Assembly (NCBI GenBank): GCA_964457775.1
Contig: CAYWEW010000001.1
Coordinates: forward strand, 17,783 to 81,782
Reading direction: 5' to 3'
Length of the DNA: 64,000 nucleotides
DNA from: an uncultured Candidatus Saccharibacteria bacterium
GTDB taxonomy: Bacteria; Patescibacteriota; Minisyncoccia; Phycocordibacterales; UBA5272
Each line of letters starts with the position of its first letter. The first letter of the stretch is position 1. The position numbers were made by a program, and so were the translations under genes. The notes beneath the pieces are model-generated. The model saw nothing but the letters and a program-made list of their open reading frames with translations, was not told the origin of the DNA and did not search any database. Positions 13,684 through 60,604 of the stretch are shown piece after piece.

Positions 13684-16600
13684 CTACTGACATGTCTCAT
13701 CTCTCATCGCCTGTCTTGTAACTTCATAAACCATTCCGGTTGGAGCAAGACCTATAGTTGCTTGGTAACCTTTTACAGCTTCTATAGTTTTATCACCATA
13801 AAATCCTGAGACTTCATTTAATAGTCCTTTAGATTGTAGGAATTTTTGTAATGTAGTTACTGCTGATGATTCTGCTCCTCGGTGAAGGTTGCGTGATATG
13901 TAAATGCATGCTGTACTTGCACCTAATACTTTAGCATTACCATTACTTGAGCTACTAAGTGTAACGACTTTTACCAAAACCTGTGTGGATGTTGAACCAT
14001 TTACACCCCCACATTTCATCCCATAATAAATACTATTTGTTACTGGCTTAATTGTTAAAGTGCCACTTGTGGCCCTTGTAACTGGACCATATTGCCCTGC
14101 GTGACTAAAATCACAATAATCAACATTAGTTGACGACCATCTCAAGGTTGTTGATCCATTAAGTGGCACCTGTGTTGGGTTTACTGTCATAGTAATTGTT
14201 GGTATTTTTAATACTGCAGGAGCAACCACTGTTGGGGTTGGAGTCAATGTATAAGTTTTTATAGTACCAGTTCCTCTTAGGCACATATCTGCATTTTTTG
14301 GTCCACTTGCGTCACAATAACTAATACATGCACTATCTGTATCCGCTACTGATGTTGCTGGGTTTGGTGATGCAATCATATTTGTGGCAGTATTTGTTCC
14401 CCCTCTAAAAAGACCACAAGTTAGTCTTGCCGTCGTATTAGTGACAACTGGTGTTGGTGTTGTAACTACAGAACCATTAACTATAAACGAATTTATTGGG
14501 AAATTGTAGATTAAAGCACCATGATGTTGTATATTGCCACCGATAAAATCATTCCATTTAAACGATGCAGGTAAGGCAAGGGAAGAAATTAATTTTGGTG
14601 TAAGACCTGTCTGTATTGTACCTGATACAGTTGCAAATACAGAAAATGTAATTGATGTACCTGCCGGTATCTCAAACGGAGAACTAGACGTTATCAAAAT
14701 ATATGACTCTAAAACCGTTGCAGATAAACCTGCTATAGTTGTATTACCATTTGCAACTCGTGGTGAAGAAATTTTAAAGCCATTTATACCAATTGAGGAA
14801 ACATTAAGAATAGTTGATGTAAAACCTATTTTTCCATTTACATCAGCACTCACTGTGAATTCACCAATCTTATTTTCAGAACCAAGCACTAGTGAGCCCC
14901 CACCATTACTTAAAGTAACTGTTGGTTTTGAAGCAACAAGTGTCATAATATTTGAGGATACTGGTGTGTTATTTATTATTACTGAACCATTAGCATTAGT
15001 TACTTCAATGTAATTAAGTGTTAATTTAACATTAGATACGCCAGAAGTTAAACTTCCTCCTGATGTTGAATTCTGAAAACCACTAAACTTAACTGTAACA
15101 GGCACATCGACTCCTGTTGAAGAAACAGGTAAGCTTAGTCCTGTAGCTGTTACGTTACCATTCACAACTGGAGCCGTTACTCCTCCAACAGTAACACTAG
15201 TTACAGCATCATTGCCTGTAGTTGAGAATCTTAGTTCACGAACAGTTGCAGACGTGTTAAATTCGGAAGTTCTAAGTTTAAATGTTGCAATACCGAATGT
15301 TGAACCGCCAACTACGAATTGTGATACAGGCGATGATGACACTAGTGTTGGATTAGCAATAGAAACAGAAGAAGTGTTCATGGCTGAAACTGCTGCTGTA
15401 GCCTGACTTGAATTAGTTATTGTTGTTGGGGTTTGATTTGGGCTTGGAGATGTCGCCATAGTTGGTGCTGGAGCTGAAGCGGGTGGTATATTTGAGTAAA
15501 TTTCCTCCATTTCCCATGTACATCTAATTGATTTTGTAGGATTATTATAACTATTAGTTACACAGTTAGTATATGCGTATTCTTTTGAAACATTTTCCGT
15601 AGAAATAAATGGCGCTGCACTACCTCCCAAATAACCTTTGTATGAACCCAGTTGAGTGGTAGGTATTGTTGTTATTTCTTGTTGAACATTCAAACCATAA
15701 TTGTTACTATTCCCTGTTCGAGAATTAGTAATATTTATAGTATGAAAACCAGATGAAAGATTTCTTGTTAATGCAAAGTCGCTTTTCTTAATAGAAATAA
15801 TACTATCTGTAGGATTAAATTTACTAACCATAGAATTACCCATGCCGTCTATTTGCAAATAATTACCATCTAAGTTTAATCTAGCTCCAGAAATTGTTAT
15901 ATATCCACTTACATCAGTTGCTTTAGATATATATGGCGAAGTTTCACCGATGATAATTACACTATTACTCTTCGCGTAGTTTACATATGAAGAAACATCA
16001 ACGACTTTTTGTGTGTTGGTGTTAATATCAACATAAGAAAGGTTCGAAGGCCTAAAACTATAAGCGCCAGCAAATAATTCTTTGGTTGGAATTGTATTTC
16101 TAATATAAATTGTAGCTGTATCATTTGCCTTGATTATTAGATTAGTGTCATTGGAATAATTATAGTCAGAAATAAAGCTGGACACAGAGCCTCTGTATTT
16201 TACGCCATTAGAATTAATACGCACATTTTCATTATTAACAAATCCTCCTAAATTTGTTGCAACGCCATACACACCATACACATCTATATCTGAATTTCCA
16301 GCAGTGATTTTTACCTTTGCAACACCAACTAATTCTGTCTCTTTATTATTTAAGTCATAAGAAAGTTTAATTGATGGTGCTCCAACAAACTCAATAACGG
16401 GGTATATCGTATTTGAAGAACTTAGTGCGCTTTCGGTTGTAAATGATAGAAACTCTCCCTTAACATTTCCTTTTGAGCCACTTGCAACTATTCTATAGTA
16501 ATATGTTGTATTGGGAGCCAGTTTGTAAATATTTGTTGAGCAACTTACAACTGTGTTTCCATCGTAGATATATGAACATGGCGTTGCGTTCAATTGTCCG

Positions 16601-17253
16601 TACATTGATGTCCCCCATTCAAACCAAGCTTTGGGTTTTAAAGTTCCATTATTAGGTTCAACATATCCAGCGATAAGAGCACTGTTATTTGTATAGTTAG
16701 CTCCAGTTGTTTTAACAGACACAAAAGAAAGGGTCTCTGATGTATTAGTGCGACACGGTTCATAAGAAACAGCACCATTACAATTATATATAGTTTCAAC
16801 AGGATTGTTTACATTAGGAGTTTTTGTTGACGGAACATCAACTGAAACAGTTTTAGTGTTTACTGAAGAAGCACTTCTACAGCTTATCTCCCTTATCTTC
16901 GCTCGTGTCACAGGACCAACATAACCAGAAGTTATGAACCCGTTCTTTTTTTGAAAATATTTAACTGCTTTAAGAGTAGAAGGACCGAACACGCCATTAG
17001 GTTCTGCTGTAAGAAACCCTTGGTCTTGAAGGAAATATTGTAAATCAGATACTTCTCCGTTAGTATTAGAATCTTTTGATTTCTTATAAGTTAAGTTATA
17101 AGATAAATCTGTACATCCCTCACTTGCTTGGTCTGGGGCTTCATCACCAACAATACTTGTTGTAACAGGAACCGCTATTGATGTTGCTGAAACAATTGAT
17201 AAAGAAAAACAAATTCCACTGATAATAGCACCTACTGTTAAATATTTTTTCAT
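13684..17253 (-). CDS. Giant secreted/surface protein (1189 aa) with two peptidoglycan-binding (PG_binding_1-like) domains
   Basis: Signal peptide (MKKYLTVGAIISGICFSLSIVSA). PGBD-like DLQYFLQDQGFLTAEPNGVFGPSTLKAVKYFQKKNGF near the N-terminus and LQKFLQSKGLLN...GDKTIEAVKGYQATIGL at the C-terminus. Long T/S/N-rich beta-type middle. Confidence 0.7.
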   Translation of the reverse strand: MKKYLTVGAIISGICFSLSIVSATSIAVPVTTSIVGDEAPDQASEGCTDLSYNLTYKKSKDSNTNGEVSDLQYFLQDQGFLTAEPNGVFGPSTLKAVKYFQKKNGFITSGYVGPVTRAKIREISCRSASSVNTKTVSVDVPSTKTPNVNNPVETIYNCNGAVSYEPCRTNTSETLSFVSVKTTGANYTNNSALIAGYVEPNNGTLKPKAWFEWGTSMYGQLNATPCSYIYDGNTVVSCSTNIYKLAPNTTYYYRIVASGSKGNVKGEFLSFTTESALSSSNTIYPVIEFVGAPSIKLSYDLNNKETELVGVAKVKITAGNSDIDVYGVYGVATNLGGFVNNENVRINSNGVKYRGSVSSFISDYNYSNDTNLIIKANDTATIYIRNTIPTKELFAGAYSFRPSNLSYVDINTNTQKVVDVSSYVNYAKSNSVIIIGETSPYISKATDVSGYITISGARLNLDGNYLQIDGMGNSMVSKFNPTDSIISIKKSDFALTRNLSSGFHTINITNSRTGNSNNYGLNVQQEITTIPTTQLGSYKGYLGGSAAPFISTENVSKEYAYTNCVTNSYNNPTKSIRCTWEMEEIYSNIPPASAPAPTMATSPSPNQTPTTITNSSQATAAVSAMNTSSVSIANPTLVSSSPVSQFVVGGSTFGIATFKLRTSEFNTSATVRELRFSTTGNDAVTSVTVGGVTAPVVNGNVTATGLSLPVSSTGVDVPVTVKFSGFQNSTSGGSLTSGVSNVKLTLNYIEVTNANGSVIINNTPVSSNIMTLVASKPTVTLSNGGGSLVLGSENKIGEFTVSADVNGKIGFTSTILNVSSIGINGFKISSPRVANGNTTIAGLSATVLESYILITSSSPFEIPAGTSITFSVFATVSGTIQTGLTPKLISSLALPASFKWNDFIGGNIQHHGALIYNFPINSFIVNGSVVTTPTPVVTNTTARLTCGLFRGGTNTATNMIASPNPATSVADTDSACISYCDASGPKNADMCLRGTGTIKTYTLTPTPTVVAPAVLKIPTITMTVNPTQVPLNGSTTLRWSSTNVDYCDFSHAGQYGPVTRATSGTLTIKPVTNSIYYGMKCGGVNGSTSTQVLVKVVTLSSSSNGNAKVLGASTACIYISRNLHRGAESSAVTTLQKFLQSKGLLNEVSGFYGDKTIEAVKGYQATIGLAPTGMVYEVTRQAMRDETCQ

Positions 17254-17406: not shown

Positions 17407-18804
17407 CTACCAAGAGAATGGCGCTGGGTTAGAAACTACCGTTGCCTTTGATGTTCCAATCACTTCCCCTCTTAAATTACTTACAATTACTTCGAAGACA
17501 ACTTCTTGTCTGTACCATGTAGGGTTAGTTATCATTGCTGGAATTTCATTTTGGAATGATGTTGGTGCAAGCGGAATAACAAAGTCTTGGCCACATCCAA
17601 CTCCTGCAATACTTACCGATACAGATGATGGGCAAATTGCATGAATCTTGATTGAATAATTTCCAAACAATGTATTATTCCATGAAGTTCCAGTTGGAAT
17701 ATTCAAATATAATTTGAATTTCTCTCCTGAATCAACTGGTGTCTTACTTGCTCCTAATGTTACATTTGCATAACCATAATATGGGCGACGAATAGTTATA
17801 GGTGCAACTGCGGCACGGAAGTTGGATACATTCCCTGCGATATCAGTCATTGGTGTAGCTATAACAATCTTAAATGATCCCTGTTGATTATTATCACAAG
17901 CTCCAGCACACACTGCATCTAATATTTCTTTTGTAAGTACGAATGAGAAACTATTACCTGATGTAACTGCTACTTGCTTACTTTGTCCTGTGCTTCCATT
18001 TTCAACTAGGATTTGAAGTTGTGCAATATTAAGATTACTTGTTGTCCATGATAAATAGACAGTATCCCCTTCGTTGTATAATGCGTTTGAAGTTGGACTT
18101 GTAATAGTAAGTGTTCCTGGTTGTGGAACAACACCATAAGCATAACCAGTTGATGGATTATATGTTAATCCAGTGCTTTGAATTTGATTTTGTGTTGTTG
18201 CAGGAATAAGTACATTTGTAGGAATAGAAGTATTTATTGCCTGATATTCATTTGAAGAATAGTTTGAAGTGTAAGCTGAAGAATAATAAGGAGTATTATT
18301 ATTTAAGATGTTTGAAAGAGAAATATTATTTTCTTGAGGAGTTGCATAAATAACAGGAGTTGTAACTTGTGGAGAAATAACAACTGCGTATGGGTCATAT
18401 TGATCAACATAAGTGATACCAGAACTATATCCATAATAACTGTACTCGTTATATGAATACATGTCGCCACGAACATCAGAATCACAAAGTCTCTCATTTA
18501 CAGCGTTACGAGTTGATTCTCCAACTTGACCAGTCATTGAGATATTATTATCTCTTTGGAATTTCATCACTGCCTGCTTTGTTCCCTGTCCAAAATAGCC
18601 ATTTGGGGTTGCATATAAATATCCAGCCTTTGAAAGCATATTTTGAAGCACATAAACATCGTTATTTTCTGACCCAACTTGTAAAGTTCTATTGATTTGA
18701 GTTGTACAAGTGTTTACCGGTGTATTGTTAAAATACCCAGCAAATACTGCCGTTTGACCACCAAAAACCCCCAGAAAACCCAATAATATAATAATCTTTT
18801 TCAT
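17407..18804 (-). CDS. Secreted protein (465 aa) with one peptidoglycan-binding-like domain
   Basis: Signal peptide MKKIIILLGFLGVFGGQTAVFA. PGBD-like DVYVLQNMLSKAGYLYATPNGYFGQGTKQAVMKFQRDNNI. Confidence 0.6.
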   Translation of the reverse strand: MKKIIILLGFLGVFGGQTAVFAGYFNNTPVNTCTTQINRTLQVGSENNDVYVLQNMLSKAGYLYATPNGYFGQGTKQAVMKFQRDNNISMTGQVGESTRNAVNERLCDSDVRGDMYSYNEYSYYGYSSGITYVDQYDPYAVVISPQVTTPVIYATPQENNISLSNILNNNTPYYSSAYTSNYSSNEYQAINTSIPTNVLIPATTQNQIQSTGLTYNPSTGYAYGVVPQPGTLTITSPTSNALYNEGDTVYLSWTTSNLNIAQLQILVENGSTGQSKQVAVTSGNSFSFVLTKEILDAVCAGACDNNQQGSFKIVIATPMTDIAGNVSNFRAAVAPITIRRPYYGYANVTLGASKTPVDSGEKFKLYLNIPTGTSWNNTLFGNYSIKIHAICPSSVSVSIAGVGCGQDFVIPLAPTSFQNEIPAMITNPTWYRQEVVFEVIVSNLRGEVIGTSKATVVSNPAPFSW

Positions 18805-21256: not shown

Positions 21257-21463
21257 AAATTTGTTTGTTGTGCGTTTTTATTCCTTATACGTTTAGAACC
21301 CCCAGAAGGGTGATCTTCCTCAGTAAACTTTTTTCGTCAAAAAAGTTTCATCGGACGGGCTCGTGGTTTTTCTTGCTAGAAAAACATCACTCCGCCTTTC
21401 GATCCCTTACGCAAGTGACACTGGTCACTCGCTCTGGTTTCCCAAAAACGCTTCGCTTATTTT

Positions 21464-21536
21464 GTGCCCCCAGAAGGGATCGAACCTTCGACCGTCTGCT
21501 TAAAAGGCAGCTGCTCTACCGACTGAGCTATAGGGA
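21464..21536 (-). tRNA. tRNA-Lys (anticodon UUU)
   Basis: Manual cloverleaf: acceptor GTCCCTA/TGGGGGC (two G-U pairs), D-arm GCTC-AGTCGGTA-GAGC, anticodon loop CTTTTAA, T-arm GAAGG-TTCGATC-CCTTC, discriminator A, no encoded CCA. Confidence 0.8.
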
Positions 21537-21842
21537 CATGTTTTTTATTTTACTACCTACTAACTAGGTAAACGTTTTAATATATCTACCGACTTGCGTC
21601 AACGCTTGCTAGCTTATGACATCTTCGCTTCCAGGAAGCGAATCTGTTGATTCGGCCACGTTCTCTAGCTACGCGGGACCCTTAATGGTAATTAGGATGA
21701 ATAACATTAAACATCTTTTTACTAATAACGTTTCAATATACTAACATAAAATACAATACTTTTCCAGTATGGGAAGAGAGTTGGTTTATAAACGTACTTT
21801 CTTCCCCATATAATCACAGAGAATATCTGTTACACTTAATTT

Positions 21843-50467: not shown

Positions 50468-50540
50468 GCATCCGTAGCTCAGTTGGTAGAGCCGTCGTCT
50501 TATACACGACTGGTCCCTGGTTCGAGTCCAGGCGGATGCA
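50468..50540 (+). tRNA. tRNA-Ile with unusual UAU anticodon (reads AUA)
   Basis: Manual fold: acceptor GCATCCG/CGGATGC, D-arm GCTC-AGTTGGTA-GAGC, anticodon stem GTCGT/ACGAC with loop CTTATAC (U33, UAU, A37), T-arm CCTGG-TTCGAGT-CCAGG, discriminator A, no CCA. Confidence 0.75.
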
Positions 50541-50745
50541 CAAAAGAACGAAGTGAATTTTGTGCATCCGAAGAAACACAACTGCTTGTGTTTCGTCTGG
50601 ACGAGAAAGCCACAAGCATATTTTGCTAGCAAGCAAAATGCTATACCTAAAAGGTCATTCTGTTGAATGAGGAGTGACTGATTAGAAAATCATGTCGTGA
50701 GACCAAAGCAAAAATTTTTGTGACAACAAAAATTTATTTGTAGGA

Positions 50746-50766
50746 GAGTCCAGGCGGATGCACAAA
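50746..50766 (+). repeat. 21-bp direct repeat of the tRNA-Ile 3' end (att-like)
   Basis: gagtccaggcggatgcacaaa is identical to 50524-50544. Confidence 0.7.
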
Positions 50767-54151: not shown

Positions 54152-54538
54152 GGGGGTGACTTTGGCTTCGATACTAAGAATATGATGTATGTGCTGTATC
54201 GAGACTGCTCTTACACTCGTAAACGTTTTGAGCAACCATGTTGCAAACTCAACTGGCAAGGCTATCCGTTCGCCATACGCGTTCGGACTAGTTCCAGCAT
54301 TCGTCTAATTTAGACCTATCTGGTGTCCTTCTTTTTCGTATCTACGGAAAAAGTCTGGGCAATATAACAGAAGATGTAGGTTATCTTGTTGCATAGCAAC
54401 CTAACCGAAACAAACATGCTATACATTCATTGTTTTCGTTTGTTTTCTATAATGAATACGAACACATGAAGCAAACTACATACAGTAGATTCATGCACCA
54501 TACATTATTACACGCGGGTTCAATTCCCGCCACCTCCA
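54152..54538 (+). ncRNA. ssrA: tmRNA (ssrA), one-piece, ~387 nt, CCA not encoded
   Basis: 5' GGGGGTGACTTTGGCTTCGAT and 3' CACGCGGGTTCAATTCCCGCCACCTCCA match the conserved tmRNA tRNA-like ends; acceptor strands pair. Candidate tag ORF GCA AAC ... GTC TAA at 54243-54308 (ANSTGKAIRSPYAFGLVPAFV). Confidence 0.7.
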
Positions 54539-54592
54539 CAAATACAAAATACTCCACCCCTCTGGTGGAGTATTTTGTATTTGTGGAGGTGG
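54530..54592 (+). terminator. 29-bp perfect hairpin that includes the tmRNA 3' acceptor strand
   Basis: CCACCTCCACAAATACAAAATACTCCACC-cctct-GGTGGAGTATTTTGTATTTGTGGAGGTGG. Confidence 0.5.
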
Positions 54593-54617
54593 AGAAAGCC
54601 AACTGCTTGGCTTTCAA

Positions 54618-54804
54618 GGGAATTGAATACTGGGTCGCGAAATCATCTGTTACGAACAAAGTGAGTAACTGATTTTGTGACCAATTCCCCCACCTTCGTC
54701 ACTTTCGGGGAACTGAATGCGGGTCGGGAATCTGCTTCGATCAAAGCTGATTAGTAAATCACGTCGGGAGACGCTAGGCAGATTTGTGACCGATTCCATC
54801 TCCT
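54618..54804 (+). repeat. Two tandem structured units (79 and 98 nt) downstream of tmRNA; each has a long-range closing helix and ends with a degenerate copy of the tmRNA 3' end
   Basis: Unit 1 GGGAATTGAATaCtGGGTCGcGAAATCATCTG...CTGATTTTGTGACCAATTCCCCCACCT. Unit 2 GGGGAACTGAATgCgGGTCGgGAATCTG...CAGATTTGTGACCGATTCCATCTCC. Compare tmRNA TTCAATTCCCGCCACCTCC. Confidence 0.5.
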
Positions 54805-54902: not shown

Positions 54903-55562
54903 GTGAACGAAATCACTTTACATGCTATTGCTACAAAATTCGTTGACCTCATCTTGAAGTATCAGGACAGTTGGCAAGTAATTACAGAGTTACCAGAAAA
55001 CGAAATGTCTGTATTTTTTTTAATTGTCAGAACAGTTGGTTTTGAAATAACAGAAGTAAAAGAAGGAAAACTTGTTGGTCATTATCATGACCAAGACGGT
55101 ATCACTGGGAAAACGTATCCGATCAACAAACTTTGTCCATTTAAAGTAGTCAATAAAGATCGTGATAACTACAACGCAACAAATTGGTTAGATAGTATGT
55201 TTTCTACTGTAATATCTTCACACAATGGTAAGCCCTACGGGGAATATGATCTACTTGTCGAAAGAGTAATTGAAGCTGTAAGAAAAAGTATTCACCTTAC
55301 TCCTGTTTTGTTGACATCTGAAGGCGACACGCTGCGTGAATATCCATCTGACAATCTTTTCAAACACACAAACGATAGCGACAAACTTGGTTCAAGTGTC
55401 GGTGTTCACAAAGTTTGTAATGGATTCATGGACCGAAAATCTACAACAGAAACACACGATGTAATTCTCTGTAGAAGTTGTGGACTTAGAGTTTCTTTCC
55501 CAAACACAATAAAAACATACGGTGAACTGAGGCAATTCTTTAACTCAAAGCTTAACAATTGA
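54903..55562 (+). CDS. Hypothetical protein (219 aa), GTG start, C-terminal Cys cluster
   Basis: RBS agggag; HKVCNGF...CRSCG possible zinc-binding; no recognisable domain. Confidence 0.45.
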   Translation: MNEITLHAIATKFVDLILKYQDSWQVITELPENEMSVFFLIVRTVGFEITEVKEGKLVGHYHDQDGITGKTYPINKLCPFKVVNKDRDNYNATNWLDSMFSTVISSHNGKPYGEYDLLVERVIEAVRKSIHLTPVLLTSEGDTLREYPSDNLFKHTNDSDKLGSSVGVHKVCNGFMDRKSTTETHDVILCRSCGLRVSFPNTIKTYGELRQFFNSKLNN

Positions 55563-55681
55563 AGCATTAACCTTTTGCAACAATCCCCAACTCCTATCTA
55601 GTAACTATATGTGAACGGTGGGAGTTTTTATAACAAAAATGCCACTAACTTTCGAAAGTGGCATCTGAGAAACTTTTTCAT

Positions 55682-56167
55682 TTAACGCGAAACATCTCCA
55701 CAAAACTTACAAACACCTTCAGAATAAACACCGAGGCAGTTTTTGCTTATATGAATCCTTGCATGAAAATTGTAGCTGTCTGCCAAATTAACCGCAAAAT
55801 TAACCATGGAATTCATTCCCTTTCTTTCTTTGTTACTGAACATGCTTCTACTGACAGCTTCAAAGACACCTCCTGAAATGTATCCTTTATTATTTTTTTG
55901 CCAAATCTCTGATGTTTTTGAAACAATGTTATGGTCAAGACCTTTACGCGGAACTGGCCAAGTTACAACTTCTATTGGCTCTTCAGCTACTGATAAATCA
56001 TATTTTGGGAGACCAGCTTTTTCCTCAAGCTTCCGTAAACAATCATCAATACTTGAGCCGACAACATTCATACGAATATGTTGTGGTGGGCTAATAATTT
56101 GACTAACCCTTCCAAAAATTCCAAAACCTTGAAAAAACCCAATCATTTTTTGACTGATGGATAACAT
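55682..56167 (-). CDS. Hypothetical protein (~161 aa) with C-terminal CxxxxxxCxxC
   Basis: Start set at ATG 56167, which has GGAGG upstream (MLSISQKMIGFF...). Confidence 0.45.
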   Translation of the reverse strand: MLSISQKMIGFFQGFGIFGRVSQIISPPQHIRMNVVGSSIDDCLRKLEEKAGLPKYDLSVAEEPIEVVTWPVPRKGLDHNIVSKTSEIWQKNNKGYISGGVFEAVSRSMFSNKERKGMNSMVNFAVNLADSYNFHARIHISKNCLGVYSEGVCKFCGDVSR

Positions 56168-56344
56168 GGCACACCTCCGTAATGTGTAGACATTTAAAAA
56201 AACTACTGAGTGCATCCTACTATAATGAATAATATAGTCAATAAAAATAAATACTCAAACCCTTCCCAATATTCCAATAATATGTTATAAAATATCTAGC
56301 CAAATTTAGTCAAATTTTGTTCATTAACTAAAGGGGAAGTAGCT

Positions 56345-56902
56345 ATGAGTGACGTTGTGATTGCACTACGCGGTGACGAGTCCGAAAAACTCATCAATGG
56401 AATTCGTGCAGTTGTTACACCCTTTGTCGGTATATCTGGCGAGGGGTACCGCGCGCAACTCGGCATTGGTCTTGCGATTTCGGGAAATACAGCGATTTTT
56501 TGGGGAACCATTGTTCCTCATTCATTGATTCAGTCCTGGCGTGGTATGAAAATACTTGAACAGGCTGATTCCATTAATTCCACTGAGACATTGTGCTCGT
56601 GTTTCACTGTTGCTAAAAACGATATCAACAATGCAACAAATCACTATATCAAATCATTGGCTCGTTCTTTTGGAGGAGTGGATGCTTTGCAAGATATTCG
56701 TTATGAAATACTACGCTCTTTTCCAACCGCTGACGAAATCACAACCATGATTACAAAGTTGCGCGAACATAACCTTCCTGTTGACACCCGAGAGATTGAA
56801 GAGGCGGTGAACCTTAACCACATTGCAGATACTTCCGTCATAAGGGAGATGATTCGCACAAACCGTGAATTGTTCTCACGCGCCGTCCTCAATTTTGCTT
56901 AA
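56345..56902 (+). CDS. Hypothetical protein (185 aa)
   Basis: RBS aaagggga; perfect terminator CCCTCTTGATGAATTC...GAATTCATCAAGAGGGTTTTTG at 56913-56958; GC elevated. Confidence 0.45.
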   Translation: MSDVVIALRGDESEKLINGIRAVVTPFVGISGEGYRAQLGIGLAISGNTAIFWGTIVPHSLIQSWRGMKILEQADSINSTETLCSCFTVAKNDINNATNHYIKSLARSFGGVDALQDIRYEILRSFPTADEITTMITKLREHNLPVDTREIEEAVNLNHIADTSVIREMIRTNRELFSRAVLNFA

Positions 56903-58613: not shown

Positions 58614-59186
58614 CTAAAGTCTAAGTTCCCTTTCGCCGTTAAGCTCTTGCTTTCTTACCATCTTAATCAACTTTTCTATCATTATTTTTGGGTCTTTTTC
58701 AAAAATAACATTTGGATTTGTTCGATCACTATTTTTTATGATATTTTGAATCACTTCATCTGTCGCCCACTCTCCAACAAGTACTCCAAGAGGCATATTA
58801 GCTTCCCAAGCCACTGTAAACTCATGAATAGTACCAATACGACCACAACCAATTACAACCGCATCTGACGAGCGTATAAGCATGAGGTCGCGTCCAGGAA
58901 AACCGAACCCTGTGTATACGACGGTGTCCATAGCCTTAAGTGGTAATCTGTACACCTCCACATGTTCTTTCTTGCTTGCTGCAGGAGAAAGACCAAAAGA
59001 AAATCCCCCTGCCTCCTTTGCCCCTTCAGCTGCATACATAGGAAAACCGCTTGTTGCACCTGTAACAATCTGACATCCTTGTCTAGCAATCTCACGACCA
59101 ATTTCTTTAGCAATTGGTATTACAGATGGTCCACAATGTGCTATTTCAGCAGCGCCTGAGACACTGATAGTAATTCGTTGTTTCAT
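58614..59186 (-). CDS. LOG-family / TIGR00725-type Rossmann-fold nucleotide-binding protein (lysine-decarboxylase-like)
   Basis: GATSGFPMYAAEGA and VVIGCGRIGTIHEF match the LOG GGGxGxM / PGGxGTxEE motifs. Confidence 0.55.
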   Translation of the reverse strand: MKQRITISVSGAAEIAHCGPSVIPIAKEIGREIARQGCQIVTGATSGFPMYAAEGAKEAGGFSFGLSPAASKKEHVEVYRLPLKAMDTVVYTGFGFPGRDLMLIRSSDAVVIGCGRIGTIHEFTVAWEANMPLGVLVGEWATDEVIQNIIKNSDRTNPNVIFEKDPKIMIEKLIKMVRKQELNGERELRL

Positions 59187-59225
59187 TTTACTAGTATATA
59201 GTTACTGGTTGATAGTTACTAGTGG
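59187..59225 (-). promoter_or_regulatory. Promoter cassette: CCACTA + three tandem heptamers + TATATACT + 6 nt + ATG (likely short-leader or leaderless mRNA)
   Basis: Minus strand reads CCACTAGTAACTATCAACCAGTAACTATATACTagtaaaATG, 31/33 identical to the cassette at 4751-4783. Confidence 0.45.
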
Positions 59226-59230
59226 ACTAC

Positions 59231-60604
59231 TTAATCTAATTCAAGAACATCCCCTCTTTCTGGAACAACAACCGGAACATCATATGTTTCGTGAATTCGT
59301 TGACCTAAGAAATATGTACTCTTTGGTTCACCAAGTACAACAATCACCTTCTTAAGTGACGGAGCAGTTGTACCAACGAATTCAACAAGATGCTCTGAGT
59401 CTTTGTGCGCAGAGAATCCATGAATGTTAACCACACGCGCTCGAAGTGGAATCATATTTCCATTAATGTATAGTTCTTTTTCTTCATCAACTATACGGCG
59501 TCCTAATGTATTAACCGCCATATATCCGACAATAATAATTGTACTGTTTGGATCTGGAAGATACTTCGCCTCATGATGTAAGATACGTCCACCATTACTC
59601 ATACCACTTCCAGCGATAATAACTTTTGGACGATTATCACCATTAATAGCCTTACTCTCTTCTGGTGTTGCTGTTTGTATTAAACCCTTGAATGCAAAAA
59701 TATCATCACCACTTTTAATTGTAGCCTCAATATTTTCATTGAACCAACTGTCATATTTTTTATAAATTTTTGTAATATTAATACCAAGTGGGGAATTAAG
59801 GTAAACAGGAATTTCTGGTATTTGCTTACTTTCAACTAATTCATTAAATGCGAGTAACATTTCTTGTGTGCGTTCAATAGAGAATGCTGGAATAAGAACT
59901 GTACCTCCCTTTGCAACCGTACTTACAACCGCCTCCTTAAAAATCTCAATACGTCTATCCTTGTCTTTGTGATTTCTGTCTCCATATACACTCTCAATCA
60001 CCAAGTAATCAATATCCTTAAGCGGTGTTGTGTCTTTCATTAATGGTGAAGGGGTATTCCCGAGATCACCAGTAAAGGCAAGTTTCTTTCCTTTGTATGC
60101 AATTTCAACAATTGAACTTCCCAGTATATGTCCAGCATCATGTAGAGTAATTACAGCATTACCATCATTTGTTTCTATGACAAATTCCTTTTCATAAGTA
60201 AGTGTTGTTCCCCATAGGTGCATACTCTCAAATACATCTTTTTCTTCATAAATCATTGGCGCACCTGAGTGAAGCGACTCTTTTGTTAAAAGTCCCAATG
60301 AATCAAGCATGATAAGTTCTGCCATTTCACGCGTAGGTTCGGTACTGATAATTTGATTTTTGAATCCTTCACGAACAAGATATGGAATACGTCCAACATG
60401 GTCAAGGTGAGCGTGAGTCACAAAAAGATAGTCAATACTTTTTGGGTCATAAATAAAAGGTGCACTGTTAATCGGAATAGAATATTTCTCGCCTTGTACA
60501 AGACCGCAGTCAATGAGAATTTTTTTGCCTCCGAATTCAACTAGGAAGTTGGAACCTGTAGGCATTTGAGCGCCACCCGCAAAAGTAATTTTAAATGTAG
60601 ACAT
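59231..60604 (-). CDS. MBL-fold beta-CASP hydrolase (RNase J / CPSF-like RNA-metabolising enzyme)
   Basis: HxHxDH motif VTHAHLDHVGRIPYL; 457 aa with downstream beta-CASP-like region (His/Asp-containing motifs). Confidence 0.65.
   Translation of the reverse strand: MSTFKITFAGGAQMPTGSNFLVEFGGKKILIDCGLVQGEKYSIPINSAPFIYDPKSIDYLFVTHAHLDHVGRIPYLVREGFKNQIISTEPTREMAELIMLDSLGLLTKESLHSGAPMIYEEKDVFESMHLWGTTLTYEKEFVIETNDGNAVITLHDAGHILGSSIVEIAYKGKKLAFTGDLGNTPSPLMKDTTPLKDIDYLVIESVYGDRNHKDKDRRIEIFKEAVVSTVAKGGTVLIPAFSIERTQEMLLAFNELVESKQIPEIPVYLNSPLGINITKIYKKYDSWFNENIEATIKSGDDIFAFKGLIQTATPEESKAINGDNRPKVIIAGSGMSNGGRILHHEAKYLPDPNSTIIIVGYMAVNTLGRRIVDEEKELYINGNMIPLRARVVNIHGFSAHKDSEHLVEFVGTTAPSLKKVIVVLGEPKSTYFLGQRIHETYDVPVVVPERGDVLELD

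Follow-up and report, generated by a model that had tools for sequence, protein, structure and literature searches.

Structured elements behind the tmRNA gene and tRNA genes of Patescibacteria: a candidate family of small site-specific insertions

Islands and prophages that are brought into tRNA and transfer-messenger RNA (tmRNA) genes by integrases have reportedly been discussed by K. Williams as 'traffic at the tmRNA gene'. The present work deals with two structured units lying in tandem behind the tmRNA gene (ssrA) in a stretch of 64,000 nucleotides (nt) of contig CAYWEW010000001.1 (positions 17,783 to 81,782; in the following, the window), and with their counterparts behind tRNA genes of the window, of related genomes and of metagenomes. 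Units 1 and 2 are best read as having been inserted one after the other at the 3' end of ssrA, the inserted DNA being small, structured, site-specific and non-autonomous elements without an open reading frame (ORF), which are located at the tmRNA gene and at most tRNA genes of Paceibacteria. We give this reading a probability of roughly 55 %.

Islands with direct repeats have been described in ssrA of Dehalococcoides (PMC3146451). The elements resemble such tRNA and tmRNA islands in that the insertion lies in the segment from the T-loop to the 3' end, the gene is restored by an element-borne copy and the original 3' end, now displaced, forms a direct repeat. Furthermore, successive insertions stack by the gene with the older one distal, and the original flank was found after the distal repeat. 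In contrast to the islands, they comprise just 130–280 base pairs (bp) and have neither an integrase nor cargo on the kb scale. They also possess an internal complement of the target and a covarying fold, and a single family covers tmRNA and 15 or more tRNA isotypes.

Some recombination sites fold from a single strand, namely the integron attC sites and the CTX-phi attP(+) hairpin used by XerCD. Imperfect, strand-specific hairpins of 60–150 nt with a conserved structure, a variable apex and one-sided bulges were found here as well. Further parallels are a folded strand that rebuilds the duplex target, tandem arrays arising by proximal insertion, and a topology of inverted copy, loop and direct hybrid site. 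However, GTTRRRY/RYYYAAC core sites, a nearby intI gene and a dif-like sequence are missing, the arms of the elements consist of the gene's own T-arm sequence and vary by gene, and a further hairpin (P0) branches off.

In the literature no account of elements of this kind was found; the nearest are the group I introns in anticodon loops of Patescibacteria, which occur with homing-endonuclease genes (PMC13011429). T-loop introns of tmRNA are also on record (Williams 2002, as cited in PMC13011429). Like the group I introns, the elements are structured and tied to patescibacterial tRNA and tmRNA genes, most copies are free of ORFs, and a GIY-YIG ORF in a peripheral loop is present in relatives only (L035 and L098; L004–L098 denote the compared loci of relatives). 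Unlike an intron, every element has a complete tmRNA or tRNA upstream and leaves the gene uninterrupted. In addition, there is no Rfam group I match, the core of 80–115 nt is far too small, and the segment resembling a 3' exon is duplicated.

Repetitive extragenic palindromic sequences (REP), bacterial interspersed mosaic elements (BIME) and palindromic repeats resembling miniature inverted-repeat transposable elements (MITE) are short intergenic hairpin elements. They share with the elements the lack of ORFs, many copies per genome, a location downstream of genes and, presumably, mobilisation in trans. However, the elements occur only at tRNA and tmRNA 3' ends, always in sense orientation, and have gene-specific arms of about 20 nt and no generic terminal inverted repeats. 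Dispersal regardless of the neighbour was not observed, as core motifs and P0 are confined, within the window, to its three RNA genes. Guide-bearing mobile elements comprise group II introns with pairing of exon- and intron-binding sites (EBS/IBS), the guide sequences of IS200/IS605 and the bridge RNA of IS110. They too possess an internal segment complementary to the sequence just upstream of the insertion point, retargetable in principle, but no reverse transcriptase, TnpA or DEDD recombinase exists here, and the guide of 12–19 nt is interrupted by a hairpin and comes together with a copy of the target.

Type III toxin-antitoxin systems differ as well, since units 1 and 2 are unequal in length and sequence and the downstream ORF of 219 amino acids (aa) is without Pfam match. 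When compared with tRNA-like small RNAs (YrlA/Y RNA, mascRNA), the fold has acceptor-like and T-stem-like helices, with the T-loop replaced by the hairpin P2, and the acceptor copy is lost in about 60 % of the elements. The elements fail the defining tests of every family considered and are apparently undescribed.

Architecture and fold of the elements

Read 5' to 3' on the sense strand, an element is composed of X1, an A-rich trailer with the hairpin hpL, X'a, a 2-nt linker, P0, 0–2 nt, X'b, a bulge, P2 and X2. X1 belongs to the gene, and X2 is a duplicate of this segment (X) that begins inside the T-loop. The hairpin hpL is terminator-like, and X'a, a complement of the acceptor 3' strand, lengthens its stem into the gene. 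X'b ('antiT') is the exact reverse complement of the gene's own T-loop and 3' T-stem. P0, a hairpin of 8–10 bp with a loop that is usually CUGC, splits the target complement exactly at the boundary of acceptor and T-stem. The core hairpin P2 (GGGUCGnGAA.../...UUUGUGACC) is preceded by the one-sided bulge AAUnnG and has two conserved G.U pairs and a variable apex.

Table 1 Features of the ssrA locus and of the elements behind the two tRNA genes, in window coordinates
Feature	Position	Strand	Sequence and basis
tmRNA gene (ssrA)	54152..54541	+	Rfam RF00023, 89.3 bits
X1, final 20 nt of tmRNA (T-loop, 3' T-stem, acceptor 3' strand, discriminator)	54519-54538	+	TTCAATTCCCGCCACCTCCA; T-arm and acceptor parsed
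hpL, perfect 29-bp arms	54530..54592	+	inverted repeat; same arrangement, different sequences in relatives
hpL, inner part	within 54530..54592	+	CTCCACC..GGTGGAG, then TATTTTGTATTT; intrinsic-terminator-like
hpL, outer part: acceptor 3' strand paired with X'a	X'a 54583-54592	+	CCACCTCCAC with X'a GTGGAGGTGG; inverted repeat
P0, unit 1	54594..54615	+	GAAAGCCAA-CUGC-UUGGCUUUC; 2 nt past X'a, 2 nt ahead of X'b
X'b, unit 1	54618..54627	+	GGGAATTGAA; exact reverse complement of T-loop and 3' T-stem TTCAATTCCC (54519-54528)
P2, unit 1	54632..54682	+	GGGUCGCGAAAUCA.../...UGAUUUUGUGACC, variable apex; 5' one-sided bulge AAUACU; folding, covariation
X2, unit 1	54682..54697	+	CAATTCCCCCACCTTC; degenerate copy of tmRNA 3' end; pairs with X'b (P1) and X'a (closing helix)
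P0 remnant, unit 2, 3' half only	54697..54707	+	CGTCACTTTCG; = P0 3' half GAAAGTGACCTGCGTCACTTTCG of L019, L026, L028
X'b-like segment, P2 and X2, unit 2	54708..54804	+	GGGAACTGAAT; P2 GGGUCGGGAAUCUGC.../...GCAGAUUUGUGACC with long apex (54721-54791); X2 CGATTCCATCTCC (54791-54803)
Element behind tRNA-Ile(UAU) (gene 50468-50541)	50542..50766	+	hairpin CGGATGCACAAAA/TTTTGTGCATCCG; P0 50573-50594; X'b-like GTCTGGACGAGAA; multi-hairpin centre; X2
Element behind tRNA-Lys(UUU) (gene 21464-21537, minus)	21299..21463	-	P0 GCGAGTGAC-CAGT-GTCACTTGC (21432-21411); antiT TAAGGGATCGAA (21409-21398); X2 GATCACCCTTCTGGGGG (21315-21299)

Unit 1 is complete (54583-54697) and reaches, by X'a and P0, further 5' than the start at 54618 proposed by an earlier reading of the sequence alone (the sequence-only reading). 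A canonical terminator separates it from the tmRNA. Its X'b additionally pairs with X2, forming helix P1, and its P2 apex type is common to L026. Unit 2 is 5'-truncated, with terminator, X'a and the 5' half of P0 deleted; its P2 base is identical to that of L012.

The likeness of the two units, which had been noticed from their letters, was confirmed. The shared 5' motif GGGTCGnGAA occurs in exact form only at 54632 and 54721 of the 64 kb, and the shared 3' motif TTTGTGACCnATTCC only at 54674 and 54783. The proposed compensatory helix (AAATCA/TGATTT against AATCTGC/GCAGATT) is real and recurs in relatives as two P2 alleles. Likewise, the 3' ends do resemble the tmRNA end: unit 1 has CAATTCCCCCACCT where the tmRNA has CAATTCCCGCCACCT, a one-base deletion, and the end of unit 2 is similar to the CGATTCCGCCCATCTCC-type tmRNA ends of related species.

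The structure is selected and strand-specific, and its arms are gene-specific. Whole unit 1 (54583-54698) folds as a three-way junction of −53.6 kcal/mol (z-score −8.05), the arms being formed by a closing helix of acceptor type (GGAGGUGG/CCACCUUC), by P0, and by P1, which P2 extends. For the spans 54618-54696 and 54707-54804 the plus strand gave −29.3 kcal/mol (z −4.7) and −35.3 kcal/mol (z −2.7), respectively, and the minus strand a z of about −1.5; the better folding of the plus strand is due to the G.U pairs. Among ten tmRNA-linked units, to which RNAalifold was also applied, 93 % of the cells are paired compared with 84.5 % in column shuffles, none of 500 shuffles reaching 93 %. Twelve pairs are changed on both sides, and slid controls yielded 33–48 %. 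In P0 alone 98.8 % of the cells in nine pairs are paired, and three pairs are changed on both sides.

The gene specificity of the arms was seen when antiT was predicted from each gene's own T-arm and sought up to 260 nt downstream: it was present without edit at 10 of 103 genes and with at most one edit at 20, whereas upstream there was none. Control gene pairs with different T-arms had a rate of 0 to 1 in 5844. A scan of metagenomes for the bulge plus P2 led to 57 loci with 56 distinct elements. According to ARAGORN a tRNA ends about 90 nt upstream in most of these 56, and at least 15 isotypes are represented (Trp, Cys, Met, Arg, Lys, Thr, Val, Asp, Leu, Asn, Gln, Glu, Ser and Pro, as well as Gly and His via the antiT test). 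A matching T-arm lies upstream in 31 of 51 metagenome elements for which the contig reaches far enough upstream. Several elements can be present per contig, up to four on one of 182 kb. Besides these, 36 tRNA genes are located on the contigs, and 21 of them possess an antiT no more than 220 nt away.

In 32 of the 56 further elements all of helix P1 is paired; the cross-element controls reach 5.7 %. Opposite nucleotide 59 of the T-loop, all four Watson-Crick types were observed (UA 9, AU 13, CG 17, GC 8; 56 elements). While the P1 part of X2 is kept, no more than about 20 of the 56 have an intact acceptor part, which is expected if X2 starts as a full duplication of which only the part closing the core is selected.

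All three RNA genes of the window bear an element, and P0-type hairpins, near-identical to each other, were found only at these genes, apart from three weak matches laden with G.U pairs. At tRNA-Ile, X2 (GAGTCCAGGCGGATGCACAAA, 50746-50766) is identical over 21 nt to the tRNA 3' end plus trailer, and an acceptor-like helix of 10 bp closes the fold (z −7.7). There is no canonical terminator between tRNA-Ile or tRNA-Lys and the respective element. Since the same elements exist behind most tRNA genes, ssrA is no special hotspot here.

X'a has an A opposite U70, where the 5' strand of the tmRNA has the G of the G3.U70 pair. Thus, X'a is templated on, or selected against, the 3' strand and was not copied from the 5' half of the gene. 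A whole-gene tandem duplication was rejected as origin on the same grounds, as X'a complements the 3' strand and is not a copy of the 5' strand GGGGGUG. The element thus 'shadows' the acceptor/T minihelix of its own gene, with P0 in place of the D and anticodon arms and P2 in place of the T-loop.

Insertion, turnover and alternative explanations

Empty and occupied sites were found in relatives for both kinds of genes. At tRNA-Ile, L005 (empty) and L007 (occupied) differ by a clean indel of 161 nt which starts in the T-loop; both flanks are homologous, and the L007 copy is orthologous to that of the window. At ssrA, L011 is without an element, and the sequence following its tmRNA (CCAAAATAATAAAAATTCCG..., terminator, ...TTTTGGTAGGACCC...GACGTAGGGTAAGGAATATTA) recurs after X2 in L008 and L015: the CCAAAATAATAAAAATTCCG... 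part is identical to the post-X2 flank of L008, and in L015 it is the terminator plus flank that have their orthologous counterpart after X2. Another, element-borne hairpin comes straight after X1 and is common to L008 and L015. This comparison indicates that the element brings its own trailer and terminator, while the ancestral 3' end with its terminator is displaced. In agreement with the displacement, a second terminator stands right after X2 in many tmRNA-linked elements. The insertion is therefore located within the T-loop-to-3'-end segment X, and the original 3' end, terminator and flank are pushed downstream as X2.

Tandem copies exist in the window, in L026 (a 281-nt repeat) and in L012, L019, L024, L037 and L064 (two to three units). 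Truncations are represented by a stub at the tmRNA of L007 and by unit 2 of the window, and in L094 a nested insertion directly follows an X2. One core subtype is found both at tmRNA (L008, L037) and at tRNA-Ile (L064), and the same gene carries different subtypes in close relatives. The regions downstream of ssrA thus differ among the relatives in copy number, subtype, truncation and presence, and no constant sequence follows ssrA in all of them. Unit 1 combines the P0 of L006 and L012 with the P2 apex of L026, and unit 2 the P0 of L019 with the P2 base of L012. As the units are of different sublineages they are not the result of a local duplication, which fits successive insertions. New insertions land beside the gene, so that the older copy lies farther away: unit 2, which is the distal one, is 5'-truncated and more degenerate in X2.

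For the mobility of the elements the following steps can be proposed. The folded sense strand, as single-stranded DNA or as RNA, would be the substrate of a trans-acting enzyme. Pairing of X' with X could give the target specificity or rebuild a duplex copy of the target site, and integration may be a Campbell-type crossover between the X of the element and the X of the gene. The free form is envisaged as a small rod-like circle or hairpin in which X' is paired with X and P0 branches opposite the acceptor/T boundary, and which would mimic the target. After insertion the acceptor part of X2 would decay, and X', P0, P1 and P2 would remain selected. Template switching in quasi-palindromes, a known process by which inverted repeats are perfected, could maintain the match of X' to X1.

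Several observations weigh against successive insertion of mobile elements. A Pfam search of the window ORFs revealed no gene for an integrase, transposase, other recombinase, reverse transcriptase or GIY-YIG protein in the 64 kb, a targeted search of the window for a GIY-YIG gene was likewise negative, and no free or circular form was seen. On viral contigs the P2 pattern had nine matches, all due to chance and inside GC-rich coding DNA, and no element was found. The three elements of the window are rather diverged from each other and are therefore not recent copies. The proposed model leaves unaccounted for how an element gains not only the complement of a new target but also its copy, at least 15 isotypes being served, and presence and absence could also come about by X1/X2 recombination that deletes the element. 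Finally, the very high occupancy, the lasting conservation of orthologous elements across species and the conserved CUGC loop and G.U pairs fit an RNA of benefit to the host equally well.

Such a host-functional RNA module acting in cis, derived from an insertion but now serving the cell and transcribed by read-through, is possible although we consider it the less likely explanation. Here, the complement of 12–19 nt would pair with the 3' half of the nascent product and then be displaced by X2, with P0 and P2 as protein-binding scaffolds; 3'-end processing (e.g. entry of RNase III, P or Z), a guide for T-loop modification and quality control of read-through have been considered as its tasks. 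Besides the occupancy (all three of the window's RNA genes and no less than 58 % of the tRNA genes nearby), the pairing is in line with this: X'b complements all 12 nt of T-loop plus 3' T-stem but only about 9 nt of X2, and the match is better with X1 in 18 of 20 elements, a count subject to ascertainment bias. X' also follows changes of the T-arm between orthologous elements, for instance window versus L006; core sequence, CUGC loop and G.U pairs are conserved across loci and genomes; the window's two tRNAs lack a canonical terminator before their elements; and homing endonuclease genes usually invade conserved functional RNAs. However, the distribution is patchy in close relatives (L005 empty at tRNA-Ile, L007 with a stub and L011, L017 and L027 without element at tmRNA), tandem and decayed copies would be superfluous, a canonical terminator lies between tmRNA and element, and there is no match to a known guide or ribozyme family.

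A tentative view that spans both possibilities sees the element as a programmable target mimic. The split guide of 12–19 nt (X'a-P0-X'b) would pair with T-loop, T-stem and acceptor 3' strand of one tRNA or tmRNA, either the gene or its transcript, and the constant hairpins would recruit a trans-acting protein. It might then be either a new class of guide-directed mobile element, for which every tRNA gene is a possible target, or a domesticated cis guide RNA, specific to Patescibacteria, for tRNA 3'-end or T-loop processing.

Classical attachment (att) scars, in which the units would be remnants of integrase-bearing islands or prophages in ssrA that were later deleted and the hairpins fortuitous island ends, are improbable. 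It is true that the direct repeats of the tmRNA 3' end extend in identity into the trailer, that ssrA and tRNA genes are classical integration sites, as in the Dehalococcoides islands with their direct repeats (PMC3146451), and that relatives bear classical half-tRNA-Ile scars reaching from the anticodon loop to the 3' end. However, in 80 genomes there is no element of more than about 500 bp and no integrase between X1 and X2, and the supposed left and right ends are always contiguous and jointly form one hairpin with the target. The same core is found at 15 or more tRNA isotypes, whereas an integrase family uses one site. The covariation, moreover, reveals a selected structure, and this explanation is largely refuted already. 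Larger cargo elements between X1 and a distal X'/X2 were sought within 3.5 kb at about 50 loci, with two mismatches allowed, and only matches at chance level were obtained. Of the two interpretations offered by the sequence-only reading, that of attR-like scars thus retains its core, since the 3' ends are displaced duplicates of the tmRNA end that go back to successive insertions (L011 against L008/L015, and the 161-nt indel); it is the small unit itself that was inserted, and no relic of a lost integrase island is involved. The second interpretation, paralogous small RNAs, is borne out as regards a paralogous family with a conserved, covarying and strand-specific fold, whose members are putative RNAs.

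Independent small RNA genes or a purely local tandem duplication, with the resemblance to the tmRNA end coincidental or due to a shared terminator, are highly improbable, because although both units fold well and the L026 repeat proves that local tandem duplication occurs, the two sublineages are each found in other species and at other tRNA genes and the resemblance of the 3' ends is gene-specific over about 80 elements, so that this explanation is already contradicted.

Further candidates were rejected. Rfam 15, applied to the window and to 18 loci with the gathering thresholds as well as with permissive ones, gave no match to an element (group I intron, hammerhead, hepatitis delta virus (HDV), twister, Y RNA, signal recognition particle (SRP)); matches were limited to tmRNA, tRNA and spurious microRNA hairpins, and the permuted-tmRNA model reached 28 bits (threshold 47) with T-arm and terminator only. 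Readings as hammerhead, box C/D, H/ACA or K-turn (CUGAUGAG in L057, CUGA boxes) were dismissed by inspection only, as core nucleotides and spacings do not fit. For antiT as internal guide sequence (IGS) with P1-P10 of a group I intron, the U.G wobble at the putative splice site and an omega-G ahead of X2 are missing. A primer-binding site for mature tRNA does not apply because X' pairs with the genomic trailer and not with CCA. A leader of L20 or infC is contradicted by L007, in which infC directly follows the truncated stub, and by the tRNA-specific arms. A phage origin was discarded for want of similarity in a phage collection and because the window is housekeeping chromosome.

If the elements are confirmed, the tRNA and tmRNA genes of a large patescibacterial clade would each have a private structured appendage that bears a complement and a copy of their own 3' end. 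For annotation this would account for 3'-fragment pseudo-tRNA matches, for long hairpins behind tRNA genes and for the variable spacing between ssrA and infC. With respect to mobile DNA, no smaller site-specific integrative elements would be known, and their guide-like module would have been retargeted to 15 or more tRNA isotypes. A processing or guide function based on RNA is a live alternative in organisms with minimal protein repertoires, and if either branch of the guide interpretation were true, an unrecognised layer of tRNA-gene organisation would exist in a major bacterial phylum. Since the element is compact and its specificity segment can be read from the sequence, both hypotheses are directly testable.

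GIY-YIG genes in relatives and genomic setting

In L035 (5019-5288) an ORF of 89 aa with a GIY-YIG domain (Pfam 1e-17) lies between antiT and the 3' strand of P2 plus X2, and in L098 the ORF takes the apical position of P2 and is followed by AACTCGTGATC plus X2. There are 115 homologous proteins of about 88 aa, and the named ones come from Patescibacteria, many of which have such a gene immediately after the tmRNA. In all four further loci that were looked up, the ORF is located directly behind the tmRNA on the same strand, the tmRNA being confirmed by Rfam in each. The protein could be the mobility enzyme of an autonomous version or a homing parasite that landed in a widespread element. As it has no DNA-binding domain, recognition would be structural or guided. 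The GIY-YIG loci (L035, L093, L094, L095-97 and L098) also have a conserved non-coding module, composed of CTCGACTCGCTTCGCTCGCTCGTGGCAAGCCAC, a terminator and AGCGAGTCGAGTGCCCTGAGCGAGGAGTG..CGAGTCGAATGGGCT.

The window is a chromosomal segment of Patescibacteria (candidate phyla radiation, CPR) from the Paceibacteria/Parcubacteria group. The closest relatives of its SmpB are all metagenome-assembled genomes of that group, and identical SmpB sequences were found in metagenome assemblies only. The content is that of a core chromosome (ribosomal proteins, SecY, EF-Tu, PolA, RecG, FtsH, SmpB, IF3). Around ssrA the gene order is RecG, tRNA-Ile(UAU), FtsH (minus strand), SmpB, tmRNA, units 1 and 2, three ORFs without Pfam match and IF3-L35-L20.

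The tmRNA of the window (54152-54541) and several of those in relatives were missed by ARAGORN, though Rfam assigns them 79–132 bits, and the coding and pseudoknot regions align poorly to the bacterial consensus. Over 54529-54593 the hairpin hpL has E-values down to 3e-6 against several microRNA precursor models, long hairpins being prone to such spurious matches. The interval between ssrA and infC is variable: in the window (54903-56902) it is filled by the three ORFs of 219, 177 and 185 aa, which are not flanked by a further copy of the tmRNA end, in L093 by other small ORFs, and in L007 infC comes immediately next.

A tRNA-Ile with the rare anticodon UAU lies near FtsH, SmpB and ssrA in almost all relatives and makes up 50 of the 56 tRNAs found in loci L004-L083. 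A second type of scar occurs downstream of this gene in L004, L008, L011, L012, L016, L020, L021 and L024. It consists of tandem copies of the 3' two-thirds of tRNA-Ile, which extend from the anticodon stem-loop to the 3' end and have 3 nt inserted in the anticodon loop. A conserved spacer (TTTGGGGATAAGGTRCGAATGAAATCAAAATACG; about 35 nt) precedes every copy, and in L011 and L016 the hairpin TTATGGCCAAGCCATAA stands in place of the T-loop of the partial copy. These partial copies look like classical anticodon-loop att scars. In L009 (1107-1400) the acceptor stem of the functional tRNA-Ile reads ..GTAGACGC, compared with ..GTGGATGC in the downstream pseudo-copy and in X2 of the element; to judge from these letters, the gene end may have been replaced by that of an incoming element.

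The ribosomal-protein cluster (S10/spc-like; 6045-41087, minus strand) is split. Between L6 (12316-12915) and L5 (30916-31470) unrelated genes including Fpg, tRNA-Lys, PolA and TsaE are located, together with two large proteins with peptidoglycan-binding domains (13684-17253 and 17407-18804), and more ORFs without Pfam match are found between L5 and S3. At 58614-60604 (minus strand), a SLOG/LDcluster4 protein adjoins an RNase of the beta-CASP/metallo-beta-lactamase type (RNase J/CPSF-like). This RNase is a candidate RNA-processing enzyme in a genome whose tRNA genes do not encode CCA.

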